Positions 13,433-36,131 of a stretch of 36,131 nt of DNA are shown one piece after another. The notes under the pieces were generated by a model. It had not been told where the DNA came from. It worked only from the letters and a program-made list of their open reading frames with translations, and ran no database searches. Each line of letters starts with the position of its first letter. The stretch's first letter is position 1. Made by a program: the position numbers and the translations under genes. The DNA is from a phage: NCBI GenBank assembly GCA_018175075.1, contig GCA_018175075.1_4100.3. One strand, 5' to 3'.

Positions 13433-13433
13433 A

Positions 13434-19061: not shown

Positions 19062-19068
19062 GGTTTAT

Positions 19069-19654: not shown

Positions 19655-19664
19655 TTATAACACA

Positions 19665-20647: not shown

Positions 20648-20975
20648 TGGTACTGAATACTTTGTTTCAAGATATGTAATCAACCACAACCATTATGTAA
20701 CCTATATTCCAGAATACAATCAATTTTATATCCAGATTTATCAATATAATGGAAAGATAAATGATATATATTCAGAAATAAAAATCCCTGATTATAGTAC
20801 TTTATCAGAAGAGGAATTATTTCAGGAGAGCACTATAAGTACTGAAGATGTGTACGAAATAATGGAATACCAGAAGGTACTTAAACATTTTCATGAAGCA
20901 AATGATATACAAATCGATATTGTTAAACCGTGGTGTTACAATACATATGAGGTAAATTATGTTAGAAATGATTAA
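20613..20975 (+). CDS. hypothetical protein, family B
   Basis: Motif EEELFQESTIST; alternative start ATG 20640. Confidence 0.6.
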   Translation: MQNTTTIQYMTDGTEYFVSRYVINHNHYVTYIPEYNQFYIQIYQYNGKINDIYSEIKIPDYSTLSEEELFQESTISTEDVYEIMEYQKVLKHFHEANDIQIDIVKPWCYNTYEVNYVRND

Positions 20976-21372
20976 AATTATGCAACGTTGTGTTGTTGAC
21001 CAACACGGGATATATGGATATCGTTTAAGTGCTCCTATTGACAAAAATAAAACAACCTATGTAAGCTATAATGCTGTACAAGGATTTGATATATTCATTA
21101 GTACTAATTATCAAATCAAACAAGCTAAAGATGTGTCTATAATGACCCCTGATGAGTTATTTCAGTACAGCTTAGTCTTTCCTACATGTATCGATTTACA
21201 ACGTCTAGGAGCGATACAGAAGGTTTTACGCGAACATAAAGTACAACCCAATAAAGTCACACACATTCCAGAAACAATCTTCAAAACCATAGAAGTAGAA
21301 ACTCCTGATTATATGTTAAGTGATGATGAGTACTACGAGAAACACTTCCCTGGTAAAGTTTGGAGAGACTAA
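20959..21372 (+). CDS. hypothetical protein, family B
   Basis: GAGGT RBS; motif PDELFQYSLVFP. Confidence 0.65.
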   Translation: MLEMIKIMQRCVVDQHGIYGYRLSAPIDKNKTTYVSYNAVQGFDIFISTNYQIKQAKDVSIMTPDELFQYSLVFPTCIDLQRLGAIQKVLREHKVQPNKVTHIPETIFKTIEVETPDYMLSDDEYYEKHFPGKVWRD

Positions 21373-21863
21373 TGAACCGAAAGTACAGAGAAACTATGAA
21401 GTTCGCTAGGGAGTGTTTAGAAGTGTTTGAGTTCATCAATGCTCATAAAGATTTACTCCATAGATACATTGCAATCAGTGAGACAGATGACCATAGGTAC
21501 ATATGTTCTCGAATTCAAGATAAGATATATAAGATTGTGTTCTCGGAAACATACACAGATACATCTAATTCACTATATGATTTTGCACGTACTGATTACG
21601 TTTCATACAAATCTTGGTCTGATAGTATTAAAATTGTGCACAAGCAAAATACATTTTATTCTTTTCTTACGGACATTTCCGAAGAAAGTTACTTTCAAAA
21701 CAGTTTAATTTATACAGAAAAAGAACTCAAAATGTTATATATTATGTCGTACTTTAAAAAGTACTGCAAATTTAATACATTATCTTTTGAGATTTCTGCA
21801 ATGAAAGTATTCATTAAAAATGTAAAAGAATTAAAGAGGGCTTTTAATGTACATAGAAAATGA
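21372..21863 (+). CDS. hypothetical protein, family B
   Basis: TAATG overlap with upstream stop (track TTG 21360); motif EESYFQNSLIYT. Confidence 0.6.
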   Translation: MNRKYRETMKFARECLEVFEFINAHKDLLHRYIAISETDDHRYICSRIQDKIYKIVFSETYTDTSNSLYDFARTDYVSYKSWSDSIKIVHKQNTFYSFLTDISEESYFQNSLIYTEKELKMLYIMSYFKKYCKFNTLSFEISAMKVFIKNVKELKRAFNVHRK

Positions 21864-22389
21864 GAATGTAAAATGCATTACTGACATTTGTATAAAATTA
21901 ATGAAAATTTTCATTAATCCAAAATACAAAAAACGTTCATTACATCATAATATTGATGAGCATTGTACCATTAATATACTAGGTAGTATTCTTGATGTAA
22001 AATATGATGGTAAAATGTTATTCGGTATAAGAGAAGAGAAAATAGATGATGCATTCTTTTCCTGTAAAGATAAATTTGAACCTTCTGATTATAAAGTAAT
22101 TATTCGTGATGATAGCATCTACATTAGTAGTGATTATTCAAATTACTTCGATAAAATATACACTGAAAACGTTGACTACCATTATGAAATGATAGATTTA
22201 CCAGTAACAGACATTGATATGGAGAGAATCAAATTTTCATTATCAGATAATGAGTACTTAGGTATACAAACATATTATTCACTACAAGGAAAGATTCCAC
22301 CTGCTATGTATATAAGGATTGAGATTGGTAATGTATTCAATGATAAGGTTATATCAATTGCTGATAAAATATTGAGGGTTGAATTATGA
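21847..22389 (+). CDS. hypothetical protein
   Basis: 180-aa ORF; AGAGGG RBS; no clear motif. Confidence 0.55.
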   Translation: MYIENENVKCITDICIKLMKIFINPKYKKRSLHHNIDEHCTINILGSILDVKYDGKMLFGIREEKIDDAFFSCKDKFEPSDYKVIIRDDSIYISSDYSNYFDKIYTENVDYHYEMIDLPVTDIDMERIKFSLSDNEYLGIQTYYSLQGKIPPAMYIRIEIGNVFNDKVISIADKILRVEL

Positions 22390-22949
22390 ATATCAATGAT
22401 TACCAATTTCATAGGCTTGAATTTCGTCATTGTGTTGCATTTGCAAAAACATTGATGTGCATCATTGACACTCTTTCATCCAAACAATTTCGTAAGGATA
22501 ATGATTTATTTCTGAAAAAAGGTCGTGTAACATCAACCGATATCGGTATTGAACTATTTGTTGATATCAGTGTTGATACCGGAGACAGTACAAGGGTTGG
22601 TTGTATAGGTCATATTGGTACACATTGCTTCACATGGAATCCAAATACAAGTCAAGTGCGAATTGATTATAGAAATTCACGTTGGGTTGATCTTAGTACT
22701 GAATCAGATTTAGAATCAGCTATGTTCCAGCTAAGTTTAATTCACAATCCTAATGAACTTCTTTACATTATTACTTTCAGTTATCTGTTACAAAACTACG
22801 ATAAACCATCAGGGTTTTTCATAGAATCGGATATAGAAGAAATTATGGAAGAGTTTCCTAGTTTAAAGGATATTCTGGAAGAAAAAGATTTCTATGAAGA
22901 CTTCAGAGATTTATACGACATGCACTTGGAGTTATTTAAGAATGGATAA
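22386..22949 (+). CDS. hypothetical protein, family B
   Basis: Motif ESAMFQLSLIHN. Confidence 0.65.
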   Translation: MNINDYQFHRLEFRHCVAFAKTLMCIIDTLSSKQFRKDNDLFLKKGRVTSTDIGIELFVDISVDTGDSTRVGCIGHIGTHCFTWNPNTSQVRIDYRNSRWVDLSTESDLESAMFQLSLIHNPNELLYIITFSYLLQNYDKPSGFFIESDIEEIMEEFPSLKDILEEKDFYEDFRDLYDMHLELFKNG

Positions 22950-23460
22950 AGATGATATTCTAATTAGACTAATTAATAGTTTAATAAAGTTCTCAAATAA
23001 TGATGTCGATACATACAAAGTGGGGGATATTGAATTTAAATCATTTGGTATGTACGGTGAGGATAAAACATATTATGCGTCAATGAAATTTCAAGATTTT
23101 CACGAGATGTTAATATCGTTATCATATGAAGATGTTGATCCAAGATGGAGTTCCAGTATTTCACTATCGAGAATGGTAATTCGTAGTAAGCATCGTTATA
23201 TTTCGTCAAAGAATACTCCTAACTTGATTAATATTGTCTTGAATGAAAATACAAATCCCCTATCTAAACATGATATCGTACCGTTAACCGATGAAGTTCT
23301 TTTTCAATTGAGTACCATTTGTGATGAAGATGTGATATCATGTATGAAAATTTATGAGAAGGTTGGGAGTGATATTCCCATGAACTATTACCTAACTATA
23401 GATGGAACGTACCTTCGAGATGAGGTTCTAGCGTACATTGACAGTGTTTTACCAAAATAA
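22942..23460 (+). CDS. hypothetical protein, family B
   Basis: Motif DEVLFQLSTICD; start at ATG 22942 overlapping upstream stop (track 22894). Confidence 0.6.
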   Translation: MDKDDILIRLINSLIKFSNNDVDTYKVGDIEFKSFGMYGEDKTYYASMKFQDFHEMLISLSYEDVDPRWSSSISLSRMVIRSKHRYISSKNTPNLINIVLNENTNPLSKHDIVPLTDEVLFQLSTICDEDVISCMKIYEKVGSDIPMNYYLTIDGTYLRDEVLAYIDSVLPK

Positions 23461-23481
23461 AGACCCGTATGGGTCTTTTTG
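23459..23481 (+). terminator. rho-independent terminator
   Basis: AGACCC gtat GGGTCT hairpin followed by TTTTT, directly after stop at 23460. Confidence 0.7.
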
Positions 23482-23491
23482 TGTTTATGGC

Positions 23492-23520
23492 TTTACAAGA
23501 GCATTCAGGTGTGTTATACT
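23492..23520 (+). promoter_or_regulatory. sigma70-like promoter
   Basis: TTTACA (23492-23497), 17-bp spacer, TATACT (23515-23520). Confidence 0.65.
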
Positions 23521-23547
23521 TGATTTTAACTAGAGTTGGAGGAATCT

Positions 23548-24114
23548 ATGAGTACTGAATTAATTAAAGAAGTCACATTACTTCTGAAGCATTGTTTTAA
23601 GTTCATTCCTGATACTGGCTCACGCCAGTACATTAAAGTTAATGAGAAATATAACATCAATATCCTTGTATCTGAAACTGCGAGCAGTTATGCTAACATT
23701 GAGTTGGATTCTGAAGAAAAATATACAGTATTACAAATCATAGCAGATGTACAACGTAAACAAGATTATCGTTCTTCATTTTACAACGATCATCTGTGTG
23801 TTTGCTCAAACTTCAGTGAGAATAAAATTGTGTATAAGAATTTATACACACATGAAGTGATTGATACATATAATTATAAAATTTCATCTGATGAATACAA
23901 TGTTCTAATGTTCAACGCAAACCTTTTGTATGATGCCAGTACTGTACGCTGTTTAGAGTTAGCATATAAAATTCCAAAGATCATGGAAAGAAAAGATTTG
24001 ATTCACTTTAAAACAATTTTAAAATACAGTACAAAAGAATTAGAGGATTTAGTACAGGCTCTTAAGAATTTCATTAATGAACATGTACCTGTTAAATTCG
24101 AGGATGCACAATGA
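23548..24114 (+). CDS. hypothetical protein
   Basis: GGAGGAA RBS 4 nt before ATG 23548 (track begins TTG 23536); family motif only degenerate (LMFNANLLYD). Confidence 0.6.
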   Translation: MSTELIKEVTLLLKHCFKFIPDTGSRQYIKVNEKYNINILVSETASSYANIELDSEEKYTVLQIIADVQRKQDYRSSFYNDHLCVCSNFSENKIVYKNLYTHEVIDTYNYKISSDEYNVLMFNANLLYDASTVRCLELAYKIPKIMERKDLIHFKTILKYSTKELEDLVQALKNFINEHVPVKFEDAQ

Positions 24115-24695
24115 ACCATATCAGAACTAAAATTTTGAGACTCATGCATGACATTGCAGAACTTTCAGAGATTCATGACATTACAGAAATTGTTGAATTT
24201 GATAATTATCGACTGAAAATTGAAAACAAATCCAAACATCGTTTTGGTTCAGTTCAGTTGGATGTATATAAAACTTATGAATTTTCTAAAAAAATTAAAA
24301 GTTCATGGGATACGATTACTATGTACATTCGCACATCCAGAAATCGTGAACGTATTGGTTCTATTTCTTATAATATGGTATTTGCGAATGCATTACATGA
24401 AAAAATGAATAAAATTGTAGAATCTAATTTCAGTGAAGATGATGGTTTTATTGGTTTGGAAGTTCCACCAGAATTAGACCAAAGTGAAGATATTCGAGAT
24501 GCATTCATTTTCCAGAAATCATTGTTGGACAATTACAAAGAATTCGAGTACTTAATGCTTTGTTACGATACTGCAAAAGTTCTTGATTGTGGTGAACTAG
24601 TTATGTACAATGATTTTATCAATTGCAAGACTGATGTTCTGAATACACTACTTCAAAATATAGAATCTGTTAAGGAAAAATATGAACGCTTATAG
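24111..24695 (+). CDS. hypothetical protein, family B
   Basis: ATGA overlap; motif DAFIFQKSLLDN. Confidence 0.6.
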   Translation: MNHIRTKILRLMHDIAELSEIHDITEIVEFDNYRLKIENKSKHRFGSVQLDVYKTYEFSKKIKSSWDTITMYIRTSRNRERIGSISYNMVFANALHEKMNKIVESNFSEDDGFIGLEVPPELDQSEDIRDAFIFQKSLLDNYKEFEYLMLCYDTAKVLDCGELVMYNDFINCKTDVLNTLLQNIESVKEKYERL

Positions 24696-25260
24696 TTATA
24701 TGACAGAACGCCATCAGTTATTATATGATATCAGTAAAAAAATGCTATCAATTGTTGGTAGTGCGAAAGAAATTGAAAAACAATATCTCATCCGTGATGT
24801 AGCAATTTCATCTAAATGTTGGTCAAATGAATATTACGACCACGGTATTCTTACTATTTCTGGGGCCAGAAATATTTGTATTGTAAAAAATAAAAGTAAA
24901 AGTAATGAAGAGTGTGAGATTAGAACCGATATACAAATTAAGGATGATGGAAGTTTTTCACATCACCCATTCCATATTAGTACTGTTGGTGTTTTATATA
25001 ATATTAAAGTTCTATTCGGTGATGAAGAGTATGTGTTAAAAGCTATCAATCCAGATTCAAGTACAGTTGAAGAAGAACTGTTCCAGATGAGCACTGTTAT
25101 ACCTGAAGAGGTTCTTAGTACTGTTATTTTTTGTAGTTTAATTTATCATGAATACAAAAAGTACCAGTTCGATTTCCACATGTTAGGAACGTACATCTTC
25201 AATAATTTGAATGTAGATCGTTTAAAAGCATTAAATTCAGCAATGGATAAGGTGCTATAA
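24682..25260 (+). CDS. hypothetical protein, family B
   Basis: AAGGAAAAA RBS; motif EEELFQMSTVIP. Confidence 0.65.
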   Translation: MNAYSYMTERHQLLYDISKKMLSIVGSAKEIEKQYLIRDVAISSKCWSNEYYDHGILTISGARNICIVKNKSKSNEECEIRTDIQIKDDGSFSHHPFHISTVGVLYNIKVLFGDEEYVLKAINPDSSTVEEELFQMSTVIPEEVLSTVIFCSLIYHEYKKYQFDFHMLGTYIFNNLNVDRLKALNSAMDKVL

Positions 25261-25688
25261 TGACAAGAGATGATTGTTTGTACATATGGGATATAATTGA
25301 AACTACACTTTCAAATCCAGAAAATTATAAAACACAAAAAAGACAACGACACAAAACATGGATAGATTTGTTCGTTGAGGACATACACGCAGTGACTATT
25401 TGGGATTCACCGAGGACATCAGCATCTACTCTGTTGGACAATGAATGCATTGATTGCATTAATTCCACTTTTCATCTCCACGGTACTACAATTTTTGGTA
25501 CATTTCTGGATATTGAAAGTAAAGATGATATTGATTCACTTGCGTTACAATACCAAGTACTGTATAATACTAAATTAATTTACGATTTAGTACTAGCTTC
25601 TTATGTGTATAAATTAATGATGAAATATAATCATATTTCTGTTTCAGTTTATACTAAGGATATTCTTTCATTAAGAGACAAAACATGA
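25260..25688 (+). CDS. hypothetical protein
   Basis: AAGGTG RBS; 142-aa ORF; motif absent or degenerate. Confidence 0.55.
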   Translation: MTRDDCLYIWDIIETTLSNPENYKTQKRQRHKTWIDLFVEDIHAVTIWDSPRTSASTLLDNECIDCINSTFHLHGTTIFGTFLDIESKDDIDSLALQYQVLYNTKLIYDLVLASYVYKLMMKYNHISVSVYTKDILSLRDKT

Positions 25689-26194
25689 GTTTATTAAATG
25701 CACGCGAATTGGTTGAGATGTATGAGATTTTGTCTTCATATAAAAATTCTCATGGAGATGTGATTCTCGACAAAAAGTTCCATGTCAGTGTTGAACATAT
25801 ATCAAATATAGATATGATTTCTTTGGTGGAAAGTAATAAGTCAGGTCTTGAACGCGATATCATGCGTTTGATTTATATTCCCAAACCATCATATACTAAT
25901 GATAGTTCAATTAGTAATGAGACATTCATGTATAGTCCCGGTACGGATTCTACTATAGTATCGCTGTCCAATAAATCAATGGATACTTTCCAATTCATAT
26001 ATACCAGTACTGATAACATTGAAGAAATTGAATTTCAAAACAATACATTAAGTCCATGTAGTAGTGTTATAACCTTTATGTCATATCTATGGTCAACTAA
26101 AACAAGTGCTGTTGTATATAGTTCAAATTATACACAAGATAGTATTGTTGAATCATATAAAGTTCTAAAGGAATACTATGAAAATAACAAATGA
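25685..26194 (+). CDS. hypothetical protein (family B-like, divergent)
   Basis: ATGA overlap; weak motif EEIEFQNNTLSP. Confidence 0.55.
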   Translation: MSLLNARELVEMYEILSSYKNSHGDVILDKKFHVSVEHISNIDMISLVESNKSGLERDIMRLIYIPKPSYTNDSSISNETFMYSPGTDSTIVSLSNKSMDTFQFIYTSTDNIEEIEFQNNTLSPCSSVITFMSYLWSTKTSAVVYSSNYTQDSIVESYKVLKEYYENNK

Positions 26195-26759
26195 TTTTAT
26201 TAAAAGTGTAGTACACCCTATGCTTAGTATTATGAAAAAAATACAGAATCTACCGGAAGATAACGATTACAAGTTTAATCGTTTTGATTCAGATGTGTTT
26301 TGTATTGAAATTGAAATTAATAACAATCGCAATTTACATTTAAAATTCAAAGAATCTTCGAGTCCGTACTACAACTTTGATATGAATTTTAAAATAGATA
26401 CTGACATTGAAGAAAACATAATATCAAATCATACTAGCAAAAATGGTTTTATGCATAGAACTACTATGTACAATAATAAAAATAGTATTATATCTAAATG
26501 GAATCAACAATTCACTAAAATTTGTGAAATTGAATATAATGATTTTGGTGAAGAGAATTACTTTCAGTTAAGTACAATTCATGAACTTCCACCGTATGAT
26601 TATGTTAAAACATGGTTTGATATTCATAATATAATTGATGATGCAATCAAACTTCCATTTGGTGTGTCAATATCATATACTGCTCCTAAAACATTTGTTT
26701 TTACTGAAGATATGATTATGAAAAAGATATGGGCAATTATCCCACTTATGATGGATTAA
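26178..26759 (+). CDS. hypothetical protein, family B
   Basis: AAGGAA RBS; motif EENYFQLSTIHE. Confidence 0.65.
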   Translation: MKITNDFIKSVVHPMLSIMKKIQNLPEDNDYKFNRFDSDVFCIEIEINNNRNLHLKFKESSSPYYNFDMNFKIDTDIEENIISNHTSKNGFMHRTTMYNNKNSIISKWNQQFTKICEIEYNDFGEENYFQLSTIHELPPYDYVKTWFDIHNIIDDAIKLPFGVSISYTAPKTFVFTEDMIMKKIWAIIPLMMD

Positions 26760-26773
26760 ATTCGTACCAGGGG

Positions 26774-26802
26774 TTGACTCTGGTATTTTTGTATGATACA
26801 TT
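26774..26802 (+). promoter_or_regulatory. possible sigma70-like promoter
   Basis: TTGACT (26774-26779), 17-bp spacer, TACATT (26797-26802); followed by AAAGGAGAA RBS. Confidence 0.45.
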
Positions 26803-26820
26803 GTCCTAAAGGAGAATTTT

Positions 26821-27372
26821 ATGAACTACAATCATGATCTTTTTACATTATGTGCATCCAAATGTGTTGATGGATGGACAGATAAAATCAATACCATAAT
26901 TCATCGATATCTGGTCTTTAGTTCTCGTGCACGAAGTGAGGGGGCTATGGATTTCAAATATACACTATCTATTGATGGTGTAACTATCCATGCAGACGAA
27001 GAACGTCTGAGCATTAATTTGTATGATTCCTGTGTATTTGCTATTCACCAAAAGATGGGGAAAGGATGGGGTTGTAATAACATTAACTCAAAAGCTATCT
27101 TTTGGGTTGGTCACCACCAGACAGTACTTGATCCTTCAATCAAATCTAATCTTTTATCCGATAATATGGTTTATGATTTATTGTACTCCGAAGAACAACA
27201 TTTTCAGTTAAGTACATTACATGATCTGGCACAGTACGAGGATTGTTACAAAACTTTAGAACTATGCCATTCCCTTGAACTTAAAGATAAATTGATACAA
27301 GTTTACCCTTCATTCTTTCATGAAGAAGTACAAAGTACACTAGATCATATTTTATATGGATACGATAAATGA
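26821..27372 (+). CDS. hypothetical protein, family B
   Basis: AAAGGAGAA RBS; motif EEQHFQLSTLHD. Confidence 0.7.
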   Translation: MNYNHDLFTLCASKCVDGWTDKINTIIHRYLVFSSRARSEGAMDFKYTLSIDGVTIHADEERLSINLYDSCVFAIHQKMGKGWGCNNINSKAIFWVGHHQTVLDPSIKSNLLSDNMVYDLLYSEEQHFQLSTLHDLAQYEDCYKTLELCHSLELKDKLIQVYPSFFHEEVQSTLDHILYGYDK

Positions 27373-27971
27373 GAAAAAGTTATCAAGAAGCTATTGACTT
27401 AATTCGTGAAGTTATCAAGGTGGCTCCTGCTGCTATTGAGTTCAAGAAGTCCATATACAAGAAGTATGGTCCAATGTCGAGTATGTGCTTTCAAAAGAAA
27501 CGTAGTGCATATACTACACAGTACTGGAATGATTCTATCATCCTGAGCAATGAGACTCAGCGTATTTTATCTCTAGAATCTGAACCTACTGATTACGGGG
27601 AAGGGAACATTTGTGCACCTGATTATGATGAAATTAACTTCAACTGCGGTGATTTTGAAACAACATTATTACTTCATGAGGGTTATCCAGAAGGTGATGT
27701 ATTAGCTGAGTACAATCCAAAAACTAAAATTCTCAAAAGAGGAATCCAGTTCACTATTAATAACAAAGATGATGTTCAAGCAGCACTGATGCAACTGAGT
27801 ACAAGTGAACCTATCACTATTAGTGTAGAAGAGTTATGGGGAATTATTTCAGTACTCAATGAGTGCTATAAAGTAAAATCATTGCGTAAACACAGCATTA
27901 TATTACATACCAATATGGCAAATATAAAATGTAAGCACATTCAAGAAATGGTGGTTCCAGATGGACTTTAA
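27369..27971 (+). CDS. hypothetical protein (family B-like, degenerate)
   Basis: ATGA overlap; weak motif AALMQLSTSEP. Confidence 0.55.
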   Translation: MRKSYQEAIDLIREVIKVAPAAIEFKKSIYKKYGPMSSMCFQKKRSAYTTQYWNDSIILSNETQRILSLESEPTDYGEGNICAPDYDEINFNCGDFETTLLLHEGYPEGDVLAEYNPKTKILKRGIQFTINNKDDVQAALMQLSTSEPITISVEELWGIISVLNECYKVKSLRKHSIILHTNMANIKCKHIQEMVVPDGL

Positions 27972-28545
27972 AGAAATTGAAAGTAAATTAAAGTACTTCA
28001 AAGATATCAAACTTCTTTGGGAAAAGTATAAAGTTGATTACAATTTCAGTGATGATGACACTGTAAAAACAATTGAGATTAATATCAAAATCAAGTTCAA
28101 GAATAATAATTATGGTGAAGTAACCTTAAATCATACTGGTATATCACTCAAGGACTATGATGGTTCAACACTCGCATATTTTGACTTCACACCAGAACCA
28201 GATGAAACACTACTTAGTGAGATAAATTCCTATGACATGGAAGTGTTCGGCGGGAATCCGTTACTGTTCCGACTTTCTGAAGATTGGAGTGAAGAATACT
28301 ACACTTACAAAGATGGTGTAGTACTTGACATTAATGGTGAAGTTGTGAATGACTTGGAAGAACGCTTGTTCCAAGAATTGTGTGTTTCAAATACTTCATA
28401 TGCATACAATCATATCCTTGACATGTTTGATTTATATAGTAAAATAGATGCTGAAATGAATGCACATGGTATTCATTATCTTACAATCAACGACTATGCT
28501 CAACTTGAAACTGTAGTGAAAGCATTGACTAAAGTACTGAAATAG
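27961..28545 (+). CDS. hypothetical protein, family B
   Basis: Motif EERLFQELCVSN. Confidence 0.6.
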   Translation: MDFKEIESKLKYFKDIKLLWEKYKVDYNFSDDDTVKTIEINIKIKFKNNNYGEVTLNHTGISLKDYDGSTLAYFDFTPEPDETLLSEINSYDMEVFGGNPLLFRLSEDWSEEYYTYKDGVVLDINGEVVNDLEERLFQELCVSNTSYAYNHILDMFDLYSKIDAEMNAHGIHYLTINDYAQLETVVKALTKVLK

Positions 28546-28554
28546 GAATGAAAT

Positions 28555-28968
28555 ATGAAACTGTATCATGCGAGTACTGTAAAAATTGATAACTTTTATA
28601 TCCCGTATGGTGGTCTTCATATGGGAGGTAAACACAGTGCTTTGGAAGCTGCATTACGCAAGCTGAGAAGCCCACTGAACGTAGTAGACGCATGTACAGT
28701 ATACTTGCATACCTTAGAAGTTGATGTTGATAACGTGCTTCTGTGTGAAGATTTAGGCAGTGATGATGAGTGGCGTTCACTTATTGAGAATTGCACTGCT
28801 CAAGGTTATGATGCTGTTCAGTACAAAAATGATTACGAGCCAGACAATGTTCCTAGCTTTATGATTTGGGATGCATCTAAAGTTCGCATCATTGAAGTTG
28901 ATGCTATGCATATGGATGAAGCTGAAATGATTATCGAAGATTTTCTTGATGAATATGAAGGTGTATAA
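28555..28968 (+). CDS. hypothetical protein (composition outlier)
   Basis: 137-aa ORF; AGGAATGA RBS; no family motif; visibly more G+C and CTG/GCG codons than neighbours (by eye). Confidence 0.6.
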   Translation: MKLYHASTVKIDNFYIPYGGLHMGGKHSALEAALRKLRSPLNVVDACTVYLHTLEVDVDNVLLCEDLGSDDEWRSLIENCTAQGYDAVQYKNDYEPDNVPSFMIWDASKVRIIEVDAMHMDEAEMIIEDFLDEYEGV

Positions 28969-29504
28969 TGACTGACCCGATGGTAGCACTGGCACGTACT
29001 AAGTTACTATTAAAGATTGGTGAGATTTTTACGGTTCTTCTGTCCAATAATATTGATATTACTGAGCTAGATATTAAGCAACCGTGGGAAGTGACTATGT
29101 TCTCGGCGTTCCACCGATTGTCATATAAAGGTGAAAGTGTTCTTGATTTTAACCCTAAAGCAAAATTCATAGATTATGCTGCGTTGTACAGAGAGTTGCA
29201 CCGAAATATTTATTCCGGTTGTATAACCAATAACTTCAAAGAAATTAAAGTTCAAACTGCATCACATGAGTTCAATGATTTACTTTATCCAGAATTTAAT
29301 CTAACGGAAGAATTACTCTTTCAGTACTCGTTAATTCTCACAAATCTCGAAACGCTAGAGTACTACAAAGAGTTAGTAGATATTTTTATGAATACACGAC
29401 TTTCAAAAGATATTGTGATATTCTGGTATACAGAGCATGTTACGGAGGAATTGCTTACTGAATTTCTTCTAAATATGACAGCTATAAAGGAGAAGTTATG
29501 TTAG
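28968..29504 (+). CDS. hypothetical protein, family B
   Basis: GAAGGTG RBS; TAATG overlap; motif EELLFQYSLILT. Confidence 0.65.
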   Translation: MTDPMVALARTKLLLKIGEIFTVLLSNNIDITELDIKQPWEVTMFSAFHRLSYKGESVLDFNPKAKFIDYAALYRELHRNIYSGCITNNFKEIKVQTASHEFNDLLYPEFNLTEELLFQYSLILTNLETLEYYKELVDIFMNTRLSKDIVIFWYTEHVTEELLTEFLLNMTAIKEKLC

Positions 29505-29971
29505 ATATTTTAGGAAACATCGATACTGCAAATTATTTTATCCAGGACGCACTGTTCAATACAGTTCAACAAGGATTAGAAGTTCGTCATAACGTTTACC
29601 AAGGTGATGGTTATTTCGTTGATATTGTTGAGGCACGAAAGAATACGTTTAATGTTAACATTACAACACTGGGTAGACAGAACATTGCACGAATTTTAGT
29701 AAGTAAAGATGAAATTGTATTGAGATACAGTGCTAAGTTTATGTTGACTTATAAGAAAAAAACTGATATGTTCAGTACTAATTTATTTGATGAGCCATTT
29801 GACCTTGAAGATATTGAAGCTACTTTCTTTACTCAAAGTACTATGGTAAAATACACTGATGTTCAATTTTCATCAGACGTTATGTCTGAAACATTACAAA
29901 TGATCAAGGTATTATTTTATGCATTTGAGCAATTCAGAGAAGAAAGAAATAAGGTTAACAACCACAGATGA
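29498..29971 (+). CDS. hypothetical protein (family B-like, degenerate)
   Basis: AAAGGAGAAG RBS; weak motif EATFFTQSTMVK. Confidence 0.6.
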   Translation: MLDILGNIDTANYFIQDALFNTVQQGLEVRHNVYQGDGYFVDIVEARKNTFNVNITTLGRQNIARILVSKDEIVLRYSAKFMLTYKKKTDMFSTNLFDEPFDLEDIEATFFTQSTMVKYTDVQFSSDVMSETLQMIKVLFYAFEQFREERNKVNNHR

Positions 29972-30332
29972 ACTAATAGAGGCGATCACTAAGGAGTCAA
30001 AATACCACAAAGGGATTCGTCTATATTTTATAGATATTGGTTCAATGGAAGGCATATACATTTATGGTTCACAATCTTTATCTTATGATGTAATGCCAAA
30101 AAAACATGTAAAAATCTTTTTAGGTTCAGATAAAAAAACTTTCTTGACAATTAATGATAAAAACGTTATTATGAATTCGTTGGGCCATGATAAGGTGGAA
30201 ATTGATCTAAACACACTAGAGGATATTGATTTTTTTCAATACGAGTGTTTAGGTGTTGACTTACATGGCATTAGTAGCGATATGATAAAATCATTAATCA
30301 AATATTTCGAAGGTGTTCATAAATGTATCTAA
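29919..30332 (+). CDS. hypothetical protein, family B
   Basis: Motif DIDFFQYECLGV; start uncertain (53-nt overlap with upstream gene). Confidence 0.5.
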   Translation: MHLSNSEKKEIRLTTTDELIEAITKESKYHKGIRLYFIDIGSMEGIYIYGSQSLSYDVMPKKHVKIFLGSDKKTFLTINDKNVIMNSLGHDKVEIDLNTLEDIDFFQYECLGVDLHGISSDMIKSLIKYFEGVHKCI

Positions 30333-30820
30333 CTAAATCAATGAAAAATTCATTTGATAAAATTAAGAGTTGTCTTGATGGAGAAAATATTACAAGTGTT
30401 ACACAAACTGCTGACCAAATTCAAAGCAGTTCAAGTGATTGCACTGTTATTTTTGGTTTACATAGTCTGCGTTTATCAATAGTAAATAATATTGACAACA
30501 CTGCTATTGTAATCACACCATGCAATATTCAAAATGAGAATGGTGTATATCTTCATCACATGGGAACAGTATTTCACATTTTCAATTCAAACGAAAACAT
30601 TGTTAAGGAATACAATACTCTTAATATTGATTCAGGTGAATTATTTCAAATGAGTACTTTGTACTCATGTAATTTTACAGATACTTCATGTATTTTGCCA
30701 TTTTTCTTGGAAATTATTAAGAAAATGGAAAATTTAAAACGTGAATACAATAAAGAAATGGTTCCTGAAGCTATATTAAATATTACTAATGCTATAGAGA
30801 AGTATAATGCAGTGACTTAA
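30323..30820 (+). CDS. hypothetical protein, family B
   Basis: AAGGTG RBS; motif SGELFQMSTLYS. Confidence 0.65.
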   Translation: MYLTKSMKNSFDKIKSCLDGENITSVTQTADQIQSSSSDCTVIFGLHSLRLSIVNNIDNTAIVITPCNIQNENGVYLHHMGTVFHIFNSNENIVKEYNTLNIDSGELFQMSTLYSCNFTDTSCILPFFLEIIKKMENLKREYNKEMVPEAILNITNAIEKYNAVT

Positions 30821-30862
30821 TAAAAACGCACATGGAGTGCATTAGAAGATCAAGGATAGATC

Positions 30863-31336
30863 ATGGAGATTAAAACTGTTGAAAATGGGAAAATTGATGA
30901 CATTTTAGAGTTGGACGCATTCAAAGTTCATGATATAATGTTTAATGTGAAGGACATTATTCAATGTCTATTTTTGTGTAGCAAGACAATGCATGATTTT
31001 TTTCACAACCCAAATACTAACGTTTTTATACTAACAATCAGTACTGAAAACTCGTTTATCATGGGTATGCCTATGAGTACAAATGAACAATATATTGATT
31101 GTGTTATTCGTAATAACGATAGTATTACGCCACAATCTGAAGTACGTAAAAAGAAAAACACCTACACAATCAAAGATGATAAAATTATGATGTGCTGTAG
31201 TAAAGGGTTTATATTAGATAATTTTATCGTAAAAGACAGTTATCACGACTTTAAAGTATCTGAAAATCAATCCAATGTAGTTCTTTATGCGAGTGACATA
31301 GAAAGTCTAACAGTTAAAGATCCCAGTTTGGAGTAA
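30863..31336 (+). CDS. hypothetical protein
   Basis: 157-aa ORF; AAGGA RBS; no family motif. Confidence 0.55.
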   Translation: MEIKTVENGKIDDILELDAFKVHDIMFNVKDIIQCLFLCSKTMHDFFHNPNTNVFILTISTENSFIMGMPMSTNEQYIDCVIRNNDSITPQSEVRKKKNTYTIKDDKIMMCCSKGFILDNFIVKDSYHDFKVSENQSNVVLYASDIESLTVKDPSLE

Positions 31337-31338
31337 GT

Positions 31339-31470
31339 ATGGCTAAGAAAGTAAACAATTTCGTACAGAAACACATGAATGAGTTTAACAAGCCTCAGAC
31401 ACATGTGGATCGTAAAAAAGAAATGAAAAATGGTAAAGTAAAACACAAGTCGAGATTTATTCTCGACTAA
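31339..31470 (+). CDS. small lysine-rich protein (43 aa)
   Basis: Not in track (under size cutoff); GGAG 5 nt before ATG 31339; sequence MAKKVNNFVQKHMNEFNKPQTHVDRKKEMKNGKVKHKSRFILD; terminator overlaps stop. Confidence 0.45.
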   Translation: MAKKVNNFVQKHMNEFNKPQTHVDRKKEMKNGKVKHKSRFILD

Positions 31471-31476
31471 TTTTTT
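31449..31476 (+). terminator. rho-independent terminator
   Basis: GTCGAGA tttat TCTCGAC hairpin followed by TAATTTTTT. Confidence 0.7.
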
Positions 31477-31499
31477 GTATAAATTTATGAGGATTGTAT

Positions 31500-32348
31500 A
31501 TGTTAGACATTTCAGATTTTCTTAATTTTAAAAAGTATTCAGTACTTGAACATATCAACGAATTTCTGAATTCTACTACACCATTTGGTATCAGTACATC
31601 AAATGCATACGATGGATATACAATCTTCCCATACAATGACTTTCAAATTTCCGTCAAAAAAGGTTTTACAAAAGAAGTTGCAATTCGTGATGTAGTAATG
31701 TATAGCGATTCTTCTATTTCTTACTGTCATGACGTGAACAAGTTTGAATCTCTTTCAACACCTAATTGTTCATACTACAAATCCCATGACACGATGATGT
31801 ATAAAGAACAACATATCAATGGTGTTTCGTTCTATAAAACTAGCAGTGATAAATCATATACATCTAGAGATGATTTTGGAAAATACACATGTACTATGCA
31901 CACGGATAATGAAAAAACAAATTACACTCATTCATTCGAGTCCAAATTCCAAGAGAGTGAAGTTTCAAATATCACTATACAAGAACAGGTTTCAGAAGGC
32001 ATTGTATATCGTAGTACTGCATTCTTTCGCATGAAAGATATTGCCACAGGCAGACCAATGATGTACAATATTGACATATACATGAAAGGTGATATATCCG
32101 AAGTAGTGATTAGTACTGGTTATCGTGAAAAATATACAGTTACAATGGAATCACCAGATGCATCATTAGTTCACCTCTTTAACAATTTATATACATTCCA
32201 ATTCGAACTTAGTTTCGATCCAAATGAATATCAAATATTTGATATATTAAAAAGTAATATTATTAATAAGTTAGAATATTACTACAAGTTAGGTGGTAAG
32301 ATGTGCATAGTTAATACTATGTTACATAACATAAAAGAAACATTATAA
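31500..32348 (+). CDS. hypothetical protein (282 aa)
   Basis: GAGGA RBS 6 nt before ATG 31500 (track begins TTG 31494); long uninterrupted ORF; no recognisable motif. Confidence 0.65.
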   Translation: MLDISDFLNFKKYSVLEHINEFLNSTTPFGISTSNAYDGYTIFPYNDFQISVKKGFTKEVAIRDVVMYSDSSISYCHDVNKFESLSTPNCSYYKSHDTMMYKEQHINGVSFYKTSSDKSYTSRDDFGKYTCTMHTDNEKTNYTHSFESKFQESEVSNITIQEQVSEGIVYRSTAFFRMKDIATGRPMMYNIDIYMKGDISEVVISTGYREKYTVTMESPDASLVHLFNNLYTFQFELSFDPNEYQIFDILKSNIINKLEYYYKLGGKMCIVNTMLHNIKETL

Positions 32349-32364
32349 ATCTGGAGGATTTGGT

Positions 32365-32658
32365 ATGGATACTAAATTCAAAATTATTTTTAAAACTAAG
32401 CCGTATATTCCACATACAGCAGAACGTTTTATACCACATGGTGCTGAGGAAATTATTCACCAAGATGGTACTAAGTTATACCTTGTTCCTTGTTCTTATG
32501 AACGTGCAGTAGAAATGTTACTAATGAATGCTAGACTATGCAAAAACAAGTACATTAGTTACCTATACAATGAACATATTTTAGATTTCAATGATGAAAA
32601 TATGTTCATTCTAGCAATTGAGGATTTTGATAACTGGTACAATATTATTAAAATCTAA
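32365..32658 (+). CDS. hypothetical protein (97 aa)
   Basis: GGAGGA RBS before ATG 32365. Confidence 0.6.
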   Translation: MDTKFKIIFKTKPYIPHTAERFIPHGAEEIIHQDGTKLYLVPCSYERAVEMLLMNARLCKNKYISYLYNEHILDFNDENMFILAIEDFDNWYNIIKI

Positions 32659-32666
32659 TGAAAATA

Positions 32667-32705
32667 ATGTGAACATATTAGATTCTTGTGATATAATGTT
32701 CACAT
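32667..32705 (+). promoter_or_regulatory. promoter with embedded palindrome (candidate operator)
   Basis: Perfect 10-bp inverted repeat ATGTGAACAT (32667-32676) / ATGTTCACAT (32696-32705), 19-bp spacer; extended -10 TGaTATAAT at 32689-32697 lies inside it. Confidence 0.55.
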
Positions 32706-32729
32706 CTTTTTTTGATAACGGAGATATAG

Positions 32730-33116
32730 ATGAATACAAGTTCAATCCTAAAAGCAATTGGTGGTGTTTTACTCATTGAAGTAAAAGGTGAGCCAAAGCT
32801 ATGCTGTTTAGAAGATATGAAGAATACAAAACACTTCAGTACTGGTCAGATTTTCAATGCCATTCGTATTCTAAATGACAAATCCATTGCTGATTATGGA
32901 AAAGTTTGGCCTGTATATCAAAATGCTGATGGTGATATCAGTACTGATTGGAAAACAATTGAGGCGGTACGACAAAGTTGTGAGAGTGATTGGGACTTCA
33001 TTGTTGAAGTTTGTGTTCAACTACAAGAAGATGTTCCAGAAATTGTCGAACGAAAAGAAGTCCTAGCACGACTTGAAAAATTCCGTCACGGAACACTACA
33101 GTATGACACAATCTAA
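32730..33116 (+). CDS. hypothetical protein (128 aa)
   Basis: GGAG RBS before ATG 32730; first gene after palindromic promoter. Confidence 0.6.
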   Translation: MNTSSILKAIGGVLLIEVKGEPKLCCLEDMKNTKHFSTGQIFNAIRILNDKSIADYGKVWPVYQNADGDISTDWKTIEAVRQSCESDWDFIVEVCVQLQEDVPEIVERKEVLARLEKFRHGTLQYDTI

Positions 33117-33165
33117 TCTGCTTATTAAAAATATCTAATTAACATTATATAAAAGGAATTTAAAA

Positions 33166-33471
33166 ATGGAAGACAATGGAATGAAATTTGATATGTTTGA
33201 AGGTGTACCAGAGTTCGATTTCAACAAACTTGAAGAAGGTGAGGAATCAGAACTAGTTAGTGTTACACTTAAAGCAGATTCTAAAAAGAAATATTCATCA
33301 TCAGTACGTTCACGTTCACAAGAAGAATACGAAACATTTATTGAAAGTATTCATTATGAAACATTCCATCACGCAGATGGAACTCCATATGAAGTACGTG
33401 TAACAGTACTGAAGCCTGAAGTAAATCCAATGGAAAATCTACGTCCTGTTTACTGCTGGGCAAGTCACTAA
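33166..33471 (+). CDS. hypothetical acidic protein (101 aa)
   Basis: AAAGGAA RBS; followed by terminator. Confidence 0.6.
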   Translation: MEDNGMKFDMFEGVPEFDFNKLEEGEESELVSVTLKADSKKKYSSSVRSRSQEEYETFIESIHYETFHHADGTPYEVRVTVLKPEVNPMENLRPVYCWASH

Positions 33472-33477
33472 TAAACC

Positions 33478-33510
33478 AAAGGACGGGATTTGTTATCTCG
33501 TCCTTTTTTT
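33478..33510 (+). terminator. rho-independent terminator
   Basis: AAAGGACG ... CGTCCTTT hairpin followed by T-run. Confidence 0.65.
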
Positions 33511-33522
33511 GTCTGGAGATGT

Positions 33523-34377
33523 ATGAAACTTTATCTAATCGTTGACTACAATAAGGATTATGCTGGTAACTTCACCGAAGATTCGGATGGATATTGCACA
33601 TCGACTAATGTCAATGTACGTAGCAGTAGTGCTCATGAACATGAATCTTGTAAAAATCTAAAAGATTTTATCGCATACCGAGCATTTGAAAAGAACTTCT
33701 GCCGCAGTAGATATTCGAAGTTTGAGTACCCGTTAATTGATGTTCCTGATGATTTAATGTTCCAGTTAATGCTGACTGGAGTTCAAGATTATGATTACAT
33801 AGCATATAATCATATTACTAAGAAAATTTATATTGGTACATCATCACATGACACTTCTATGTATGCATCATGCCCAGATGATCGAATGAATGATAGAAAA
33901 TCATACTATAGTGGGTCAGTTGGTTTAAATGATTCATTAAATAAAAATTCATTCTTTGAGTATGTTTATGATTACCATCATGAGAAAAAAGAACGTGAAG
34001 ATTACTGTATAGCAATTGATAGTACTAATGGTTATGAAGACGTGAAAGAAGCACTTATGCCGTACATTATTGAAAAGTACTACAAAGATTTTCAGTACTG
34101 TAGTAATTTTCTAATCAGAAATTCTATTATAATCGGTCGCCAATCTAGTGCATACTCTCAGTACTATAATGATTCACCAGTAGCATCGGCAAATGAAATG
34201 TGTGATATTTTACAAATTCCACGTGAAGATATGGCATTCATTTTTACATCTTTTATTGAAGATGATGAGTTGTATATTAAAAATAAACACCGTTTCATGC
34301 CAAGCAAGATTGAGGTTATTCGAAGTTTTAGTGTTGATATACTAACAAATTTCACAGAAAAAACCGAATATAACTGA
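33523..34377 (+). CDS. hypothetical protein (284 aa)
   Basis: GGAG RBS before ATG 33523 (track TTG 33490 lies inside terminator); contains FQ-like DDLMFQLMLTG. Confidence 0.6.
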   Translation: MKLYLIVDYNKDYAGNFTEDSDGYCTSTNVNVRSSSAHEHESCKNLKDFIAYRAFEKNFCRSRYSKFEYPLIDVPDDLMFQLMLTGVQDYDYIAYNHITKKIYIGTSSHDTSMYASCPDDRMNDRKSYYSGSVGLNDSLNKNSFFEYVYDYHHEKKEREDYCIAIDSTNGYEDVKEALMPYIIEKYYKDFQYCSNFLIRNSIIIGRQSSAYSQYYNDSPVASANEMCDILQIPREDMAFIFTSFIEDDELYIKNKHRFMPSKIEVIRSFSVDILTNFTEKTEYN

Positions 34378-34405
34378 GACAAATGATAAGTTAATGATAT
34401 AATAT

Positions 34406-34439
34406 AAGGTGACAACATAATATGTTAGTCACCTTTTTT
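34406..34439 (+). terminator. rho-independent terminator
   Basis: AAGGTGAC ... GTCACCTT hairpin followed by TTTTTT. Confidence 0.7.
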
Positions 34440-34441
34440 AA

Positions 34442-34979
34442 TCCTGAAAGGTTCCCATAAGGAAATGATTAAAAGCCTAATCCACTCGAAAATGTAGAGG
34501 GTAGATGAGTAGTCCTTTCAGTACGAACAGCAGATGAAACCCGTTAGATGATGGCATAGTTTGAACCACTCACGGCAATGCGGCTGTATAAAGAACTCCA
34601 ATAGGATAAAGAGAGTTCCTCGATAGACATATAAGGATCGCACCTTACCAATTATCTAAGGGAGATTTCATAAGAAATATGCGGTCGGAATTATACAATA
34701 TAGTTGCGTCCAAATTTTGTGAAATCAAATACAAGTACTGGTCATATGGTATTTGTATTATGTGTCGGGATGTTTAAGACCGACGACCGTTGCTACAAGA
34801 ACCGCGATAGAGAGAAACAGAGCAACCCGCTTTCGTCTCGTAAGAGAATTCGTGATATGAACTATGTGAAGGCCACCAGCGTCAAATTTTTTTGTTCTTT
34901 CCCCTGCGGGGGGATGAAATATGCTCAAGCAAACCCCGTCAATATTAATTAAAAGAAAATAGTACTTGTAGAATTAGAC
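34442..34979. other. GC-richer noncoding island (candidate structured RNA or cis element)
   Basis: ~540 bp without a convincing ORF; locally GC-rich by eye (e.g. CCCCTGCGGGGGG, GTCGGgatgtttaagaCCGAC); bounded by terminator and next gene. Confidence 0.35.
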
Positions 34980-35600
34980 ATGCGTAGCATGATAATTCTA
35001 CTGATGTTGATGCAATCAACGTCACGTATATTCATTGATGTTTCCATAGGAATAATGATGGCATTTATTAGAAAAGAAAAAACTGTTACTTATAAAACTT
35101 TGAATTTTGATGATTGCATTAATCAATCACAAGACGAAGATATCTTTACTGGATATGTGGTTATTAAAGAAAAAGGATGCATTTCTTATATAAAGGAATT
35201 ACAAAATGGAATTGAAGTGACTTCAGTTAAATTACTTCCTACTCAAAAACCAACAATATCAAAAGCCCAGTATGGTAATTATTTTGAAGAAAGATATAGT
35301 AATAATTCAATAAGTGTTAAGGCTCATATTATTAAAGGAGAACTAGAAGGAGAATATAGAAAATACAACCCACAAGGAAAATGTGTTTGGGTTAAATACT
35401 TCAATTCAGGATATGATGTAACATCTGAAATTATAGAATTCTTGGGTTTAAAATGTACCCCTGAGACTATTCATGATTACAAGTTCAATACTGAAGAAGA
35501 GTTTAATCTGATGATGCGTTACGGTTCACATTTTAAATTTTTATATGAATATAACATTGACAGTAGTACTTTTGATGACATAGTACTTAACTGTCTATAA
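34980..35600 (+). CDS. hypothetical protein with possible MORN-like repeat
   Basis: Track ORF; G/Y/N-spaced segment KGELEGEYRKYNPQGKCVWVKYFNSGYDV; start uncertain (no clear RBS at 34980). Confidence 0.45.
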   Translation: MRSMIILLMLMQSTSRIFIDVSIGIMMAFIRKEKTVTYKTLNFDDCINQSQDEDIFTGYVVIKEKGCISYIKELQNGIEVTSVKLLPTQKPTISKAQYGNYFEERYSNNSISVKAHIIKGELEGEYRKYNPQGKCVWVKYFNSGYDVTSEIIEFLGLKCTPETIHDYKFNTEEEFNLMMRYGSHFKFLYEYNIDSSTFDDIVLNCL

Positions 35601-35616
35601 TCAAAGGAAATAGTAC

Positions 35617-36131
35617 ATGCCGAAAGGACAACGCGGTGGATTGGTTTATGGATATGGAATAAATGACATAGTTGGTAATGAAATTGATGGTTATGCAAAT
35701 TCCAAAAATAAATGTTACCAAACTTGGGGTGGAATATTGGAACGATGTTTTTCAGAATCATTTCATGAAAAGTATACATCCTACATTGGAACTACATTAT
35801 GTGATGAATGGAAGTATTATTCTGAATTTAAAAAATGGTATGATGATAACAAAAAAGATGGATATGAACTTGATAAAGACATTATTGGTGGAAATAGAAA
35901 ACATTACTCACCATCTACATGTGCATTTGTTCCATCGATAATCAATTGCTGTATTTTAGATGGCAAAAAAAGAACACTGAATCTTTTACCATTAGGAATT
36001 ACATACCATAAAGCTGAAAAATATAAAAATAAACCGTATGAAACACAACTTCGTAGATATAAAAAGTTAATTAGTTATGGGTATCATTCAACTCCAGAAG
36101 AAGCCCACAAAGCCTGGCAAATTGCCAAACG
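35617..36131 (+). CDS. putative homing-endonuclease-like protein with AP2-type DNA-binding motif (3' partial)
   Basis: AAGGAAA RBS 7 nt before ATG 35617; open to window end (manual translation, absent from track); C-terminal YGYHSTPEEAHKAWQIAK resembles AP2-domain signature; N-terminal GINDIVG, DKDIIGGNRKHYSPSTCAFVP. Confidence 0.45.
   Translation, partial: MPKGQRGGLVYGYGINDIVGNEIDGYANSKNKCYQTWGGILERCFSESFHEKYTSYIGTTLCDEWKYYSEFKKWYDDNKKDGYELDKDIIGGNRKHYSPSTCAFVPSIINCCILDGKKRTLNLLPLGITYHKAEKYKNKPYETQLRRYKKLISYGYHSTPEEAHKAWQIAK

Follow-up and report, generated by a model that had tools for sequence, protein, structure and literature searches.

The stretch of DNA studied here (the window) covers 36,131 nucleotides (nt) of phage contig GCA_018175075.1_4100.3 (assembly GCA_018175075.1), and its source is an Asteriusvirus (121Q-like) jumbo phage. 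Positions 18733-35609 align to 177114-193977 of Escherichia phage 121Q with an identity of 98.6%. Near the right end of the window, an intergenic island at 34442-34979 separates the homologues of 121Q genes 415 and 416; the identity to 121Q reaches 99.9% over 801 bases around it, and it corresponds to an unannotated gap in that genome. The evidence described in the following paragraphs indicates that this island is very probably occupied by the gene of a structured non-coding RNA (ncRNA). An earlier reading of the sequence alone (hereafter the original prediction) had singled out the island as a noncoding, GC-richer stretch, and its composition is indeed unlike the rest of the window: its GC content is 40.0%, for a mean of 32.0% (standard deviation 2.6%, 538-nt windows), a value that is reached by 0.17% of the 538-nt windows and whose sole other occurrence (~28600) is coding. 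The statement that this was the only long stretch without a credible open reading frame (ORF) was approximately right, but the other apparent gaps correspond to small genes that are annotated in 121Q. No conserved ORF spans the island in 24 homologues. The longest ORF within it, an 82-aa ORF with a TTG start (34704-34952), has no counterpart in the homologues, the longest ORFs of the 24 homologues vary in strand and position, and 85% of the indels are not multiples of three. The absence of a conserved ORF and the predominance of such indels rule out a coding gene. Most relatives, including 121Q, G17, phAPEC6, PBECO4 and RaK2, have no feature annotated under the match (in G17 the annotation is limited to a predicted terminator at the left edge), and a few related records call small hypothetical proteins there.

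The structure of the element was studied in an alignment (A1) made up of the window copy and 23 non-redundant homologues (24 sequences). The controls consisted of sliding the pairing partners, which preserves the relatedness of the sequences, and of 500 shuffles. The RNAalifold structure obtained from A1 was far above the controls at the first pass, and the final fold, to which two pseudoknots were added by inspection and a covariation scan, comprises 106 pairs in 18 helices. In this model 91.6% of the cells are paired, versus 38-44% when the partners are slid. Two-sided changes affect 73 of the 106 pairs and 352 cells (26-38 pairs and 51-78 cells in the controls), the covariation score is 0.408 (at most 0.094 in the controls), and none of the 500 shuffles reaches the observed value on any measure. 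Compensatory substitutions thus keep the pairs well above the controls, as is generally expected of a structured ncRNA, and their presence in 18 helices strongly supports the structured ncRNA that the original prediction had listed among its candidates. Conserved G-U pairs in three helices, namely H12 (columns 425-436, 23/24), Pb (columns 500-521, 24/24) and H13 (columns 450-472, 20/24), fit an RNA made from the + strand. Some RNAalifold helices (columns 135-137/475-477, 486-490/698-701, 507-509/516-518 and 283-290/321-339) were rejected as they never covary or clash with the supported pseudoknot. Similarly, the variation, examined by eye, gave no support to the guessed tertiary pairings AGAAGAAA/UCUUC, GAUAGA/CUAUC and CCGC/GCGG.

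All the elements of the fold are read on the + strand. The 5' domain (34444-34521) is closed by H1, where CTGAAAGG (34444-34451) pairs with CCTTTCAG (34514-34521) and seven of the eight pairs have two-sided changes. It contains the variable hairpin H2 (34452-34464) and the hairpin H3 (34477-34504; 6/8 pairs with such changes, 93% paired), which carries the near-invariant loop GAAAATGTA (34488-34496). The conserved single strand AGATGAG (AGAUGAG in the RNA) comes after this domain. Then, within 34527-34587, H5 (ACAGC with GCTGT; 100% paired, 4/5 pairs compensatory) and H6 (CCGT with ACGG; 97% paired, 3/5 compensatory) enclose a purine-rich internal loop and a variable insert. The hairpin H7 (34593-34618, GAACT with AGTTC) has two-sided changes in all of its five pairs, and the hairpin H10 (34632-34647, TAAGG with CCTTA) precedes a conserved single strand, CTAAGGGAG (34656-34664), in which the AAGGGA core does not vary among the 24 sequences of A1. 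The long hairpin H12 (34728-34759) has 12-13 bp, and 11 of 12 pairs are compensatory. Downstream of the core described below, the C-run/G-run hairpin H21, TTCTTTCCCC-TGCG-GGGGGATGAA (34895-34918), is kept even in RaK2 and in the diverged loci L051 and L079; it is one of several short GC-rich hairpins that had been noticed in the original prediction and that turn out to be real and conserved. The last conserved motif, CAAACCCCGTCAAT (34930-34943), repeats the CGTCAA/CGTCAG motif of positions 34880-34885, and wherever the two CGTCAR motifs were compared by eye, they vary together (A with A, G with G). Two optional insertion hairpins share a motif ...UACAAnnAnAGnUCCGUCnAAAAUU...; they were observed at 6234-6258 and 6380-6404 of L107, the locus of an Escherichia coli chromosomal copy, and at the same sites in the loci L023, L018 and L027 (A1 columns ~350-400 and ~530-570). 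This shared motif suggests a reusable structural or protein-binding module.

The pseudoknotted core (34762-34854) is made up of H13 (34762-34787), the invariant GACCGT, Pa (GTTGC 34789-34793 with GCAAC 34822-34826), H15 (CGCGA 34803-34807 with TCGTG 34850-34854), Pb (GAGAG 34810-34814 with CTTTC 34830-34834) and H18 (34836-34847). Pa crosses both H15 and Pb. The core is 97% paired, versus 37-58% in the slid controls, and in 25 sequences pairing is complete (100%) in both Pa and Pb, with 3/5 compensatory pairs each. The compensatory changes in Pb, otherwise invariant, come from RaK2, where GAGAG/CUUUC is replaced by AGGGG/CCUCU. The other pseudoknot, PK2 (34741-34861), was found in the covariation scan and ties the loop of H12 (GTCATAT, 34741-34747) to the strand just 3' of H15 and the pseudoknotted core (ATATGAA, 34855-34861). 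It has 6 bp in the window copy, is 95% paired, and four of its seven pairs are compensatory, in 10-11 sequences each; examples are AUUGUAU/AUACAAU, GUCGAAU/AUUCGAC, AUUGCAU/AUGCAAU and UCAUAU/AUAUGA. Each of the four paralogues of 121Q (see below) has its own, different matched PK2 pair. Between the helices, several unpaired stretches are invariant: the GAAAAUGUA loop, AGAUGAG, CUAAGGGAG (of which AAGGGA is invariant), GACCGU, AGAGAGAAAC and ACCCGC. So many invariant unpaired stretches typify a tertiary core or a binding surface. R1, a covariance model of 102 positions corresponding to the pseudoknotted core, has exactly one match in the window and four in 121Q, in addition to RaK2 and the metagenomic relatives, and matches nothing else in 0.73 Mb.

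The element is preceded by a promoter of its own. This sigma70-like promoter with an extended -10 (34376-34403, + strand) consists of the -35 box GAGACA (34376-34381), a 16-nt spacer with TG at 34395-34396, and the -10 box TATAAT (34398-34403); in the promoter scan it has 10 of 12 consensus matches plus the TG. Its -35 box overlaps the TGA stop of the upstream gene 415 homologue, and transcription of the window copy is predicted to start at ~34409-34412. GGGACA/GGAACA-N17-TGnTATAAT precedes all four 121Q copies and the homologues examined. As the original prediction held, a terminator lies upstream of the island: it is the intrinsic terminator of the gene 415 homologue (34406-34439, + strand), a hairpin AAGGTGAC...GTCACCTT at 34406-34435 with a T-run up to 34439, which is annotated in G17 and was missed by a simple terminator scanner because of its loop limit of 8 nt. 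The alignment of the four 121Q copies shows that this terminator insertion is specific to the window paralogue. Since the predicted start lies inside the 5' arm of this terminator, the full hairpin should not arise in transcripts that begin at the RNA's own promoter; it would halt upstream transcripts and be bypassed by that promoter. The whole RNA gene would accordingly begin at the predicted start and run up to the last conserved motif (34410-34943, + strand, ~535 nt), an extent based on nhmmer and blastn homology and on A1; its conserved core, defined by the extent of homology, is 34444-34943. On the 3' side, a covarying terminator hairpin with a U-run (helix 17) is found in 19 of the 24 sequences. 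It comes after the first CGTCAR motif in two of the four 121Q copies and in most homologues elsewhere, and is followed by H21 (a conserved CCCC-loop-GGGGGG hairpin) and then by the second CGTCAR motif. Both the window copy and the 90-kb copy of 121Q lack this hairpin. In the window copy it was deleted at ~34886/34887, so the 3' end of this copy is not defined.

The element is not confined to the window. It was detected by blastn in 62-71 jumbo-phage records, at 4-5 places per genome, and its carriers include Asteriusvirus, Eneladusvirus, GAP32, CBB, the Salmonella phages Munch and 7t3, the Xanthomonas phages XbC2 and XaC1, and the RaK2-like phages of Klebsiella. To judge from these matches, the RNA family is common to the Rak2-like jumbo phages of Enterobacterales and Xanthomonas. 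The whole genome of 121Q has four copies of the ~500-nt element, all on the + strand: at ~90.3 kb, after the sigma-factor gene 167; at 192.8 kb, between genes 415 and 416 (the window copy); at 247.5 kb, in overlap with ORF 516, a tiny minus-strand ORF that is probably spurious; and at 326.7 kb, between the minus-strand genes for endonuclease VII and a baseplate hub protein. These paralogues are 62-74% identical to one another in a full-length alignment, and each resembles its orthologues in other genera more than it resembles the other paralogues. IMG/VR and JGI metagenomes were scanned for sequence patterns, and the matches confirmed by nhmmer provided ~40 copies, 23 of them non-redundant, with identities of 52-95%; in each of the eight IMG/VR genomes from which at least two copies were retrieved, all the copies share one strand. 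RaK2 has a diverged homologue (nhmmer E 1e-50) in the arrangement ORF445, element, ORF446, dam, and the comparison of related genomes thus places the island at the same syntenic site in 121Q and RaK2. The locus between the endonuclease VII and baseplate hub genes is also syntenic, in 16 loci, with the RNA on the opposite strand to both neighbours. The syntenic sites and the deep divergence suggest that the paralogues are ancient and stably placed, and the antisense orientation of the RNA relative to both neighbours in the 16 loci indicates an independent transcription unit rather than a leader. The neighbouring genes differ between paralogues, and no conserved adjacent protein gene was found.

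If the window copy were considered in isolation, the element could be taken for a cis-regulatory leader (a riboswitch-like element or an attenuator) of the downstream gp416 homologue, since no terminator separates it from the next ORF and the order 415, element, 416, dam is kept in RaK2. Nevertheless, a terminator or terminator-like end is present in most members, including other paralogues, and the genes downstream of those are unrelated; in the 16 syntenic loci the downstream gene is even on the opposite strand, and the copy found in an E. coli chromosomal island has different neighbours. In addition, with ~500 nt and 18 helices the element far exceeds the size of any riboswitch known to us. 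A leader role is accordingly very improbable.

Some observations concern individual members of the family. The most diverged relative lies on the metagenomic contig OEQO01000349.1 (L051, 1-9643); it is alignable in its 3' half only, the GC content of its core is ~52%, and it is found among four paralogous genes for T7 gp0.7-like protein kinases (phrog_15752), in what appears to be the early region of a phage. Many RNA copies are followed, 50-120 nt to the 3' side, by a motif (A)ACGAAGUGA (among others in L016, L018 and L027, at 121Q 248119, and at ~1960-2060 of L104), often flanked by GUAC...GUAC and with GAAUUGAG before it. The RaK2 and E. coli island copies have this motif and the window copy lacks it; it may represent an additional 3' domain, or mark where the next transcription unit begins.

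Outside phages, a scan of bacterial genomes with the pattern TAGAGAGAAACNNNNNNACCCGC returned 21 loci, all of them chance matches according to nhmmer and the covariance model, but the E. coli island copy, being one base longer there, would escape this pattern, and the outcome of the scan is thus no proof of bacterial absence. Indeed, an intact family member is present in 2 of 5426 complete E. coli genomes (nhmmer E 2e-126; R1 86 bits): on the chromosome of LR-29-1 (NZ_AP027515.1, ~3,479,000; L107 5959-6545) and in NZ_CM130020.1. The promoter and the terminator are present in the E. coli copy and both pseudoknots are complementary. It sits between ffs and ybaA, in a 10.8-kb island together with an integrase split by IS3, unknown proteins, the candidate defence system PDC-M45 (DuOB, DUF488, mSLOG-DUF4326) and a serine recombinase. 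The ~545-bp RNA gene is the only part of the island that matches phage DNA, with 80% identity to the copies of Serratia phage BF and of Erwinia phage; no jumbo-phage homologues of the proteins that flank it were found, and none of the analyses pointed to a linked protein partner. A related island shares the integrase and the 303-aa protein of this one and bears other cargo and no RNA, and the plasmid collection has no match to the RNA family. The capture of the RNA gene alone indicates a self-contained, transferable module within the variable cargo of the island. Its capture by an island with a candidate defence system suggests that the RNA matters in phage-host conflict. The place in the variable cargo would suit a function as a decoy or in defence, or else a function in cis, namely amplification by an infecting phage. 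Within a 2-kb non-coding stretch of the same island, 430 nt 3' of the RNA, an iteron-like tandem of two copies of ATTATCGATCGTT with an inverted partner (L107 6972-7023) could serve the island as an origin or for protein binding.

A function in cis recalls the replication or packaging site that was among the candidates of the original prediction. No direct support for such a site was obtained, and what is retained as a rival explanation is a transcript acting at an origin of replication: the promoter and a structured pre-primer RNA would give rise to a persistent RNA-DNA hybrid that primes the leading strand, and the fold of the RNA would serve in cis. This scenario would account for 4-5 dispersed copies, each with a strong promoter, which keep one orientation whatever the local gene orientation. 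The conserved G6/C4 element at the 3' end could be compared to the G-run of ColE1 RNA II, a folded RNA of ~550 nt in which this run helps the hybrid to form. The distantly related T4 has about as many origins, composed of a promoter and an unwinding element, and plasmids that carry them are amplified on infection; likewise, an E. coli island with only this element could gain amplification by an infecting jumbo phage, and the iteron-like repeat lies 430 nt 3' of the island copy. Yet, ~80 invariant unpaired nucleotides and a double-pseudoknotted core far exceed the needs of known primer RNAs, and in most copies a canonical terminator comes before the G/C hairpin. Moreover, none of the four sites coincides with an inflection of the cumulative GC skew of 121Q, which tracks gene orientation only, and no origin has been mapped in these phages. 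An origin transcript thus seems unlikely, albeit less so than a leader.

The last alternative is an intron or a mobile element, either a remnant or an active copy. Rfam 15 (4227 families, including GOLLD, ROOL, OLE, HEARO, raiA, 6S, RNase P, tmRNA and the group I/II introns) has no gathering-level match in the whole window, and this covariance-model scan gave no family for the island. At E-values up to 10, the region 34300-35100 has only chance matches to small nucleolar and small RNAs on the terminator hairpin, and at E-values up to 5 nothing overlaps the element in ten diverse homologues. ARAGORN detects no transfer RNA (tRNA) or transfer-messenger RNA gene in the whole window. These results agree with the original prediction, which had seen no tRNA-like or group I motif by eye. 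In particular, the group I model (Intron_gpI) is matched neither in the window region at E-values up to 10 nor in the ten homologues at E-values up to 5, and the conserved motifs GACCGUUGC, GAUAGAGAGAAAC and ACCCGCUUUCG are, by eye, unlike what we take to be the P/Q/R/S consensus of group I introns. The series GACCGUUGC...AGAGAGAAAC...ACCCGC locally resembles 'GACCAGUGCAACAGAGAGCAAACCGC', presumably a stretch of the E. coli M1 RNA. Identity with RNase P RNA was not borne out: its model has no match at E-values up to 10 in the window region, the order of the elements differs and the GGAAAGUCC motif is absent. No published description of the element was found in full-text literature searches.

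A mobile element could explain the multiple copies, the HNH endonuclease genes that are found near several of them (121Q gp170 and gp513, and the 3' end of the window) and the passage of one copy into a bacterial island. Nevertheless, no group I or group II model is matched even at E = 10, and no host gene is interrupted: the ORFs that flank the window copy are separate conserved families (phrog_15199 and phrog_16210), annotated separately in 121Q, G17 and RaK2, and every copy is preceded by a promoter of its own. The sites keep their synteny across genera, including that of the window copy in 121Q and RaK2, the alignments show no terminal repeats or target duplications, and the identity of just 62-74% between paralogues implies that their spread is ancient and not recent. 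The intron or mobile-element remnant put forward in the original prediction is thus hardly credible, and stands lowest among these alternatives.

It seems therefore highly probable that the island is an independent gene for a large (~500 nt) structured ncRNA, one of four co-oriented paralogues in Asteriusvirus, which acts as a folded RNA in trans. The original prediction was correct in proposing an ncRNA, but overlooked the promoter that overlaps the terminator, the four paralogues per genome and the pseudoknots. In the proposed mechanism, the host sigma70 RNA polymerase would transcribe the gene early from its extended -10 promoter, and the folded transcript would act in trans through its invariant core, not as the leader of a neighbouring gene. 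One possibility is that the RNA serves as scaffold or binding partner for some conserved component of the phage or the host, another that it self-assembles into a particle in the manner of ROOL and GOLLD; it may also be catalytic. PK2 could be either intramolecular or intermolecular. In the latter case, the distinct PK2 pairs of the four 121Q paralogues may provide assembly specificity, and drift may explain them equally well.

Several points weigh against this interpretation. No partner, ligand or activity is indicated by any of the analyses made, and no transcriptome of a phage carrying the RNA family was found in the literature; the existence, ends and abundance of the transcript are predictions. 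The count controls correct for phylogeny incompletely, and the single-sequence folding energy of the window copy is uninformative (z = -1.1 for the + strand and -0.2 for the - strand), the + strand value offering no help to a structured RNA. The absence of the terminator hairpin implies that the window copy could be co-transcribed with the downstream gene, and the conserved hairpin and motif located 3' of the terminator-like hairpin in other copies are odd for a simple terminated RNA gene. Finally, the 4-5 dispersed, co-oriented and promoter-bearing copies and the capture by the E. coli island also fit a role in cis, for instance at an origin.

A bolder and distinctly less probable extension, which we offer tentatively, is that the family represents a new class of large RNA machines that only Rak2-like jumbo phages possess. 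It could be a new large ribozyme, an RNA-only particle in which orthogonal PK2 'address' pairings direct separate assembly or the formation of a defined hetero-oligomer, or the primer RNA of multiple origins, and in the host, a defence island would have co-opted the module, either to act as a decoy or to serve as an amplifier triggered by infection. To our knowledge, few classes of large (>300 nt) and highly structured ncRNAs exist in bacteria and phages. Each of those that have been solved (RNase P, tmRNA, group I/II introns, OLE, the HEARO omega RNA and the ROOL/GOLLD cages) revealed new biochemistry. The present family is well defined for study, with 18 helices and two pseudoknots, and is present in the culturable coliphages 121Q, PBECO4, phAPEC6 and G17, which infect K-12 or other laboratory strains of E. 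coli. The 4-5 ancient paralogues per genome are unusual and invite genetics. The case also illustrates how effectively structured RNAs can be spotted in AT-rich phage genomes from intergenic islands of high GC content.

Regarding the neighbouring genes, the one that directly follows the island (34980/35058-35600) had been described as MORN-like, a reading that finds no backing: it has no Pfam match and its sole match is phrog_16210, of unknown function. The last ORF of the window (start at 35617) belongs, as anticipated, to a homing-endonuclease-like family (HNH endonuclease, PHROG 953, E 6e-55). The similarity to 121Q stops at 35609, and the HNH gene is absent at that place in 121Q and G17, where gene 416 is followed by a dam-type methyltransferase gene; the stretch 35609-36131 thus looks like a strain-specific homing-endonuclease insertion. 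Elsewhere in the window, two families of small tandem paralogous genes, one with eight members of ~150-170 aa and the other with five of ~120-170 aa, occupy 11172-16327, 18374-18736 and 20138-21863. Outside the window, 121Q has another 2 kb without annotated genes (135194-137161), in which neither Rfam (E-values up to 0.1) nor R1 has a match.

Several known systems may be compared to this RNA. PA5oct, a related jumbo phage, has four ncRNAs defined by RNA-seq (PMC7318152). They are unannotated intergenic transcripts of 236-619 nt, and one of them, ncRNA004 (L105 517-1135), lies on the + strand between two minus-strand genes, has a sigma70-like promoter and ends in a C-run/G-run hairpin similar to H21 (nhmmer E 0.004, a weak match confined to this 3' hairpin). 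Homology was not established: R1 has no match in three PA5oct stretches (two of 1.3-1.7 kb and one of 16 kb) that cover all four ncRNAs, ncRNA001 and ncRNA002 look unrelated by eye, and no homology to the core was detected in ncRNA004. The ColE1 RNA II and the R-loop transcripts of T4 oriF and oriG are, like the window RNA, promoter-driven and a few hundred nt long. The several dispersed copies of the window RNA in T4-related genomes and its G-run element near the 3' end add to this likeness, and elements of the ColE1/T4 type can work on a foreign replicon. Contrary to the window RNA, these transcripts have no conserved pseudoknotted core, and the T4 origins share no sequence with one another, whereas the paralogues of the window RNA keep 62-74% identity and invariant junction nucleotides. 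OLE and HEARO (the IscB omega RNA) are also large, conserved bacterial ncRNAs with complex folds, and they work with protein partners. They are defined by linked genes, unlike the window RNA, which has no Rfam match and whose neighbours vary between paralogues.

The closest parallel is with ROOL and GOLLD (RF03087, RF01998), large pseudoknotted RNAs of phages and prophages whose function is unknown (PMC12286853). They differ from the window RNA in several respects. The Rfam scans show no match between them in sequence or structure; ROOL and GOLLD are mainly found in prophages of Firmicutes and the window RNA in jumbo phages of Proteobacteria; the latter is not beside tRNA islands, the nearest tRNAs of 121Q being 12 kb away; and it occurs as 4-5 ancient paralogues per genome. 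Nevertheless, all of them are large (>500 nt), multi-helix, pseudoknotted and phage-borne RNAs whose support comes mainly from covariation. A loop-to-linker 'pseudoknot' that covariation had predicted in GOLLD proved to be an intermolecular bridge in a nanocage (PMC12286853), and PK2 is a contact of the same type, between a hairpin loop and a joining strand. The element is best described as a new family of large structured phage ncRNA, the closest in kind to ROOL and GOLLD.

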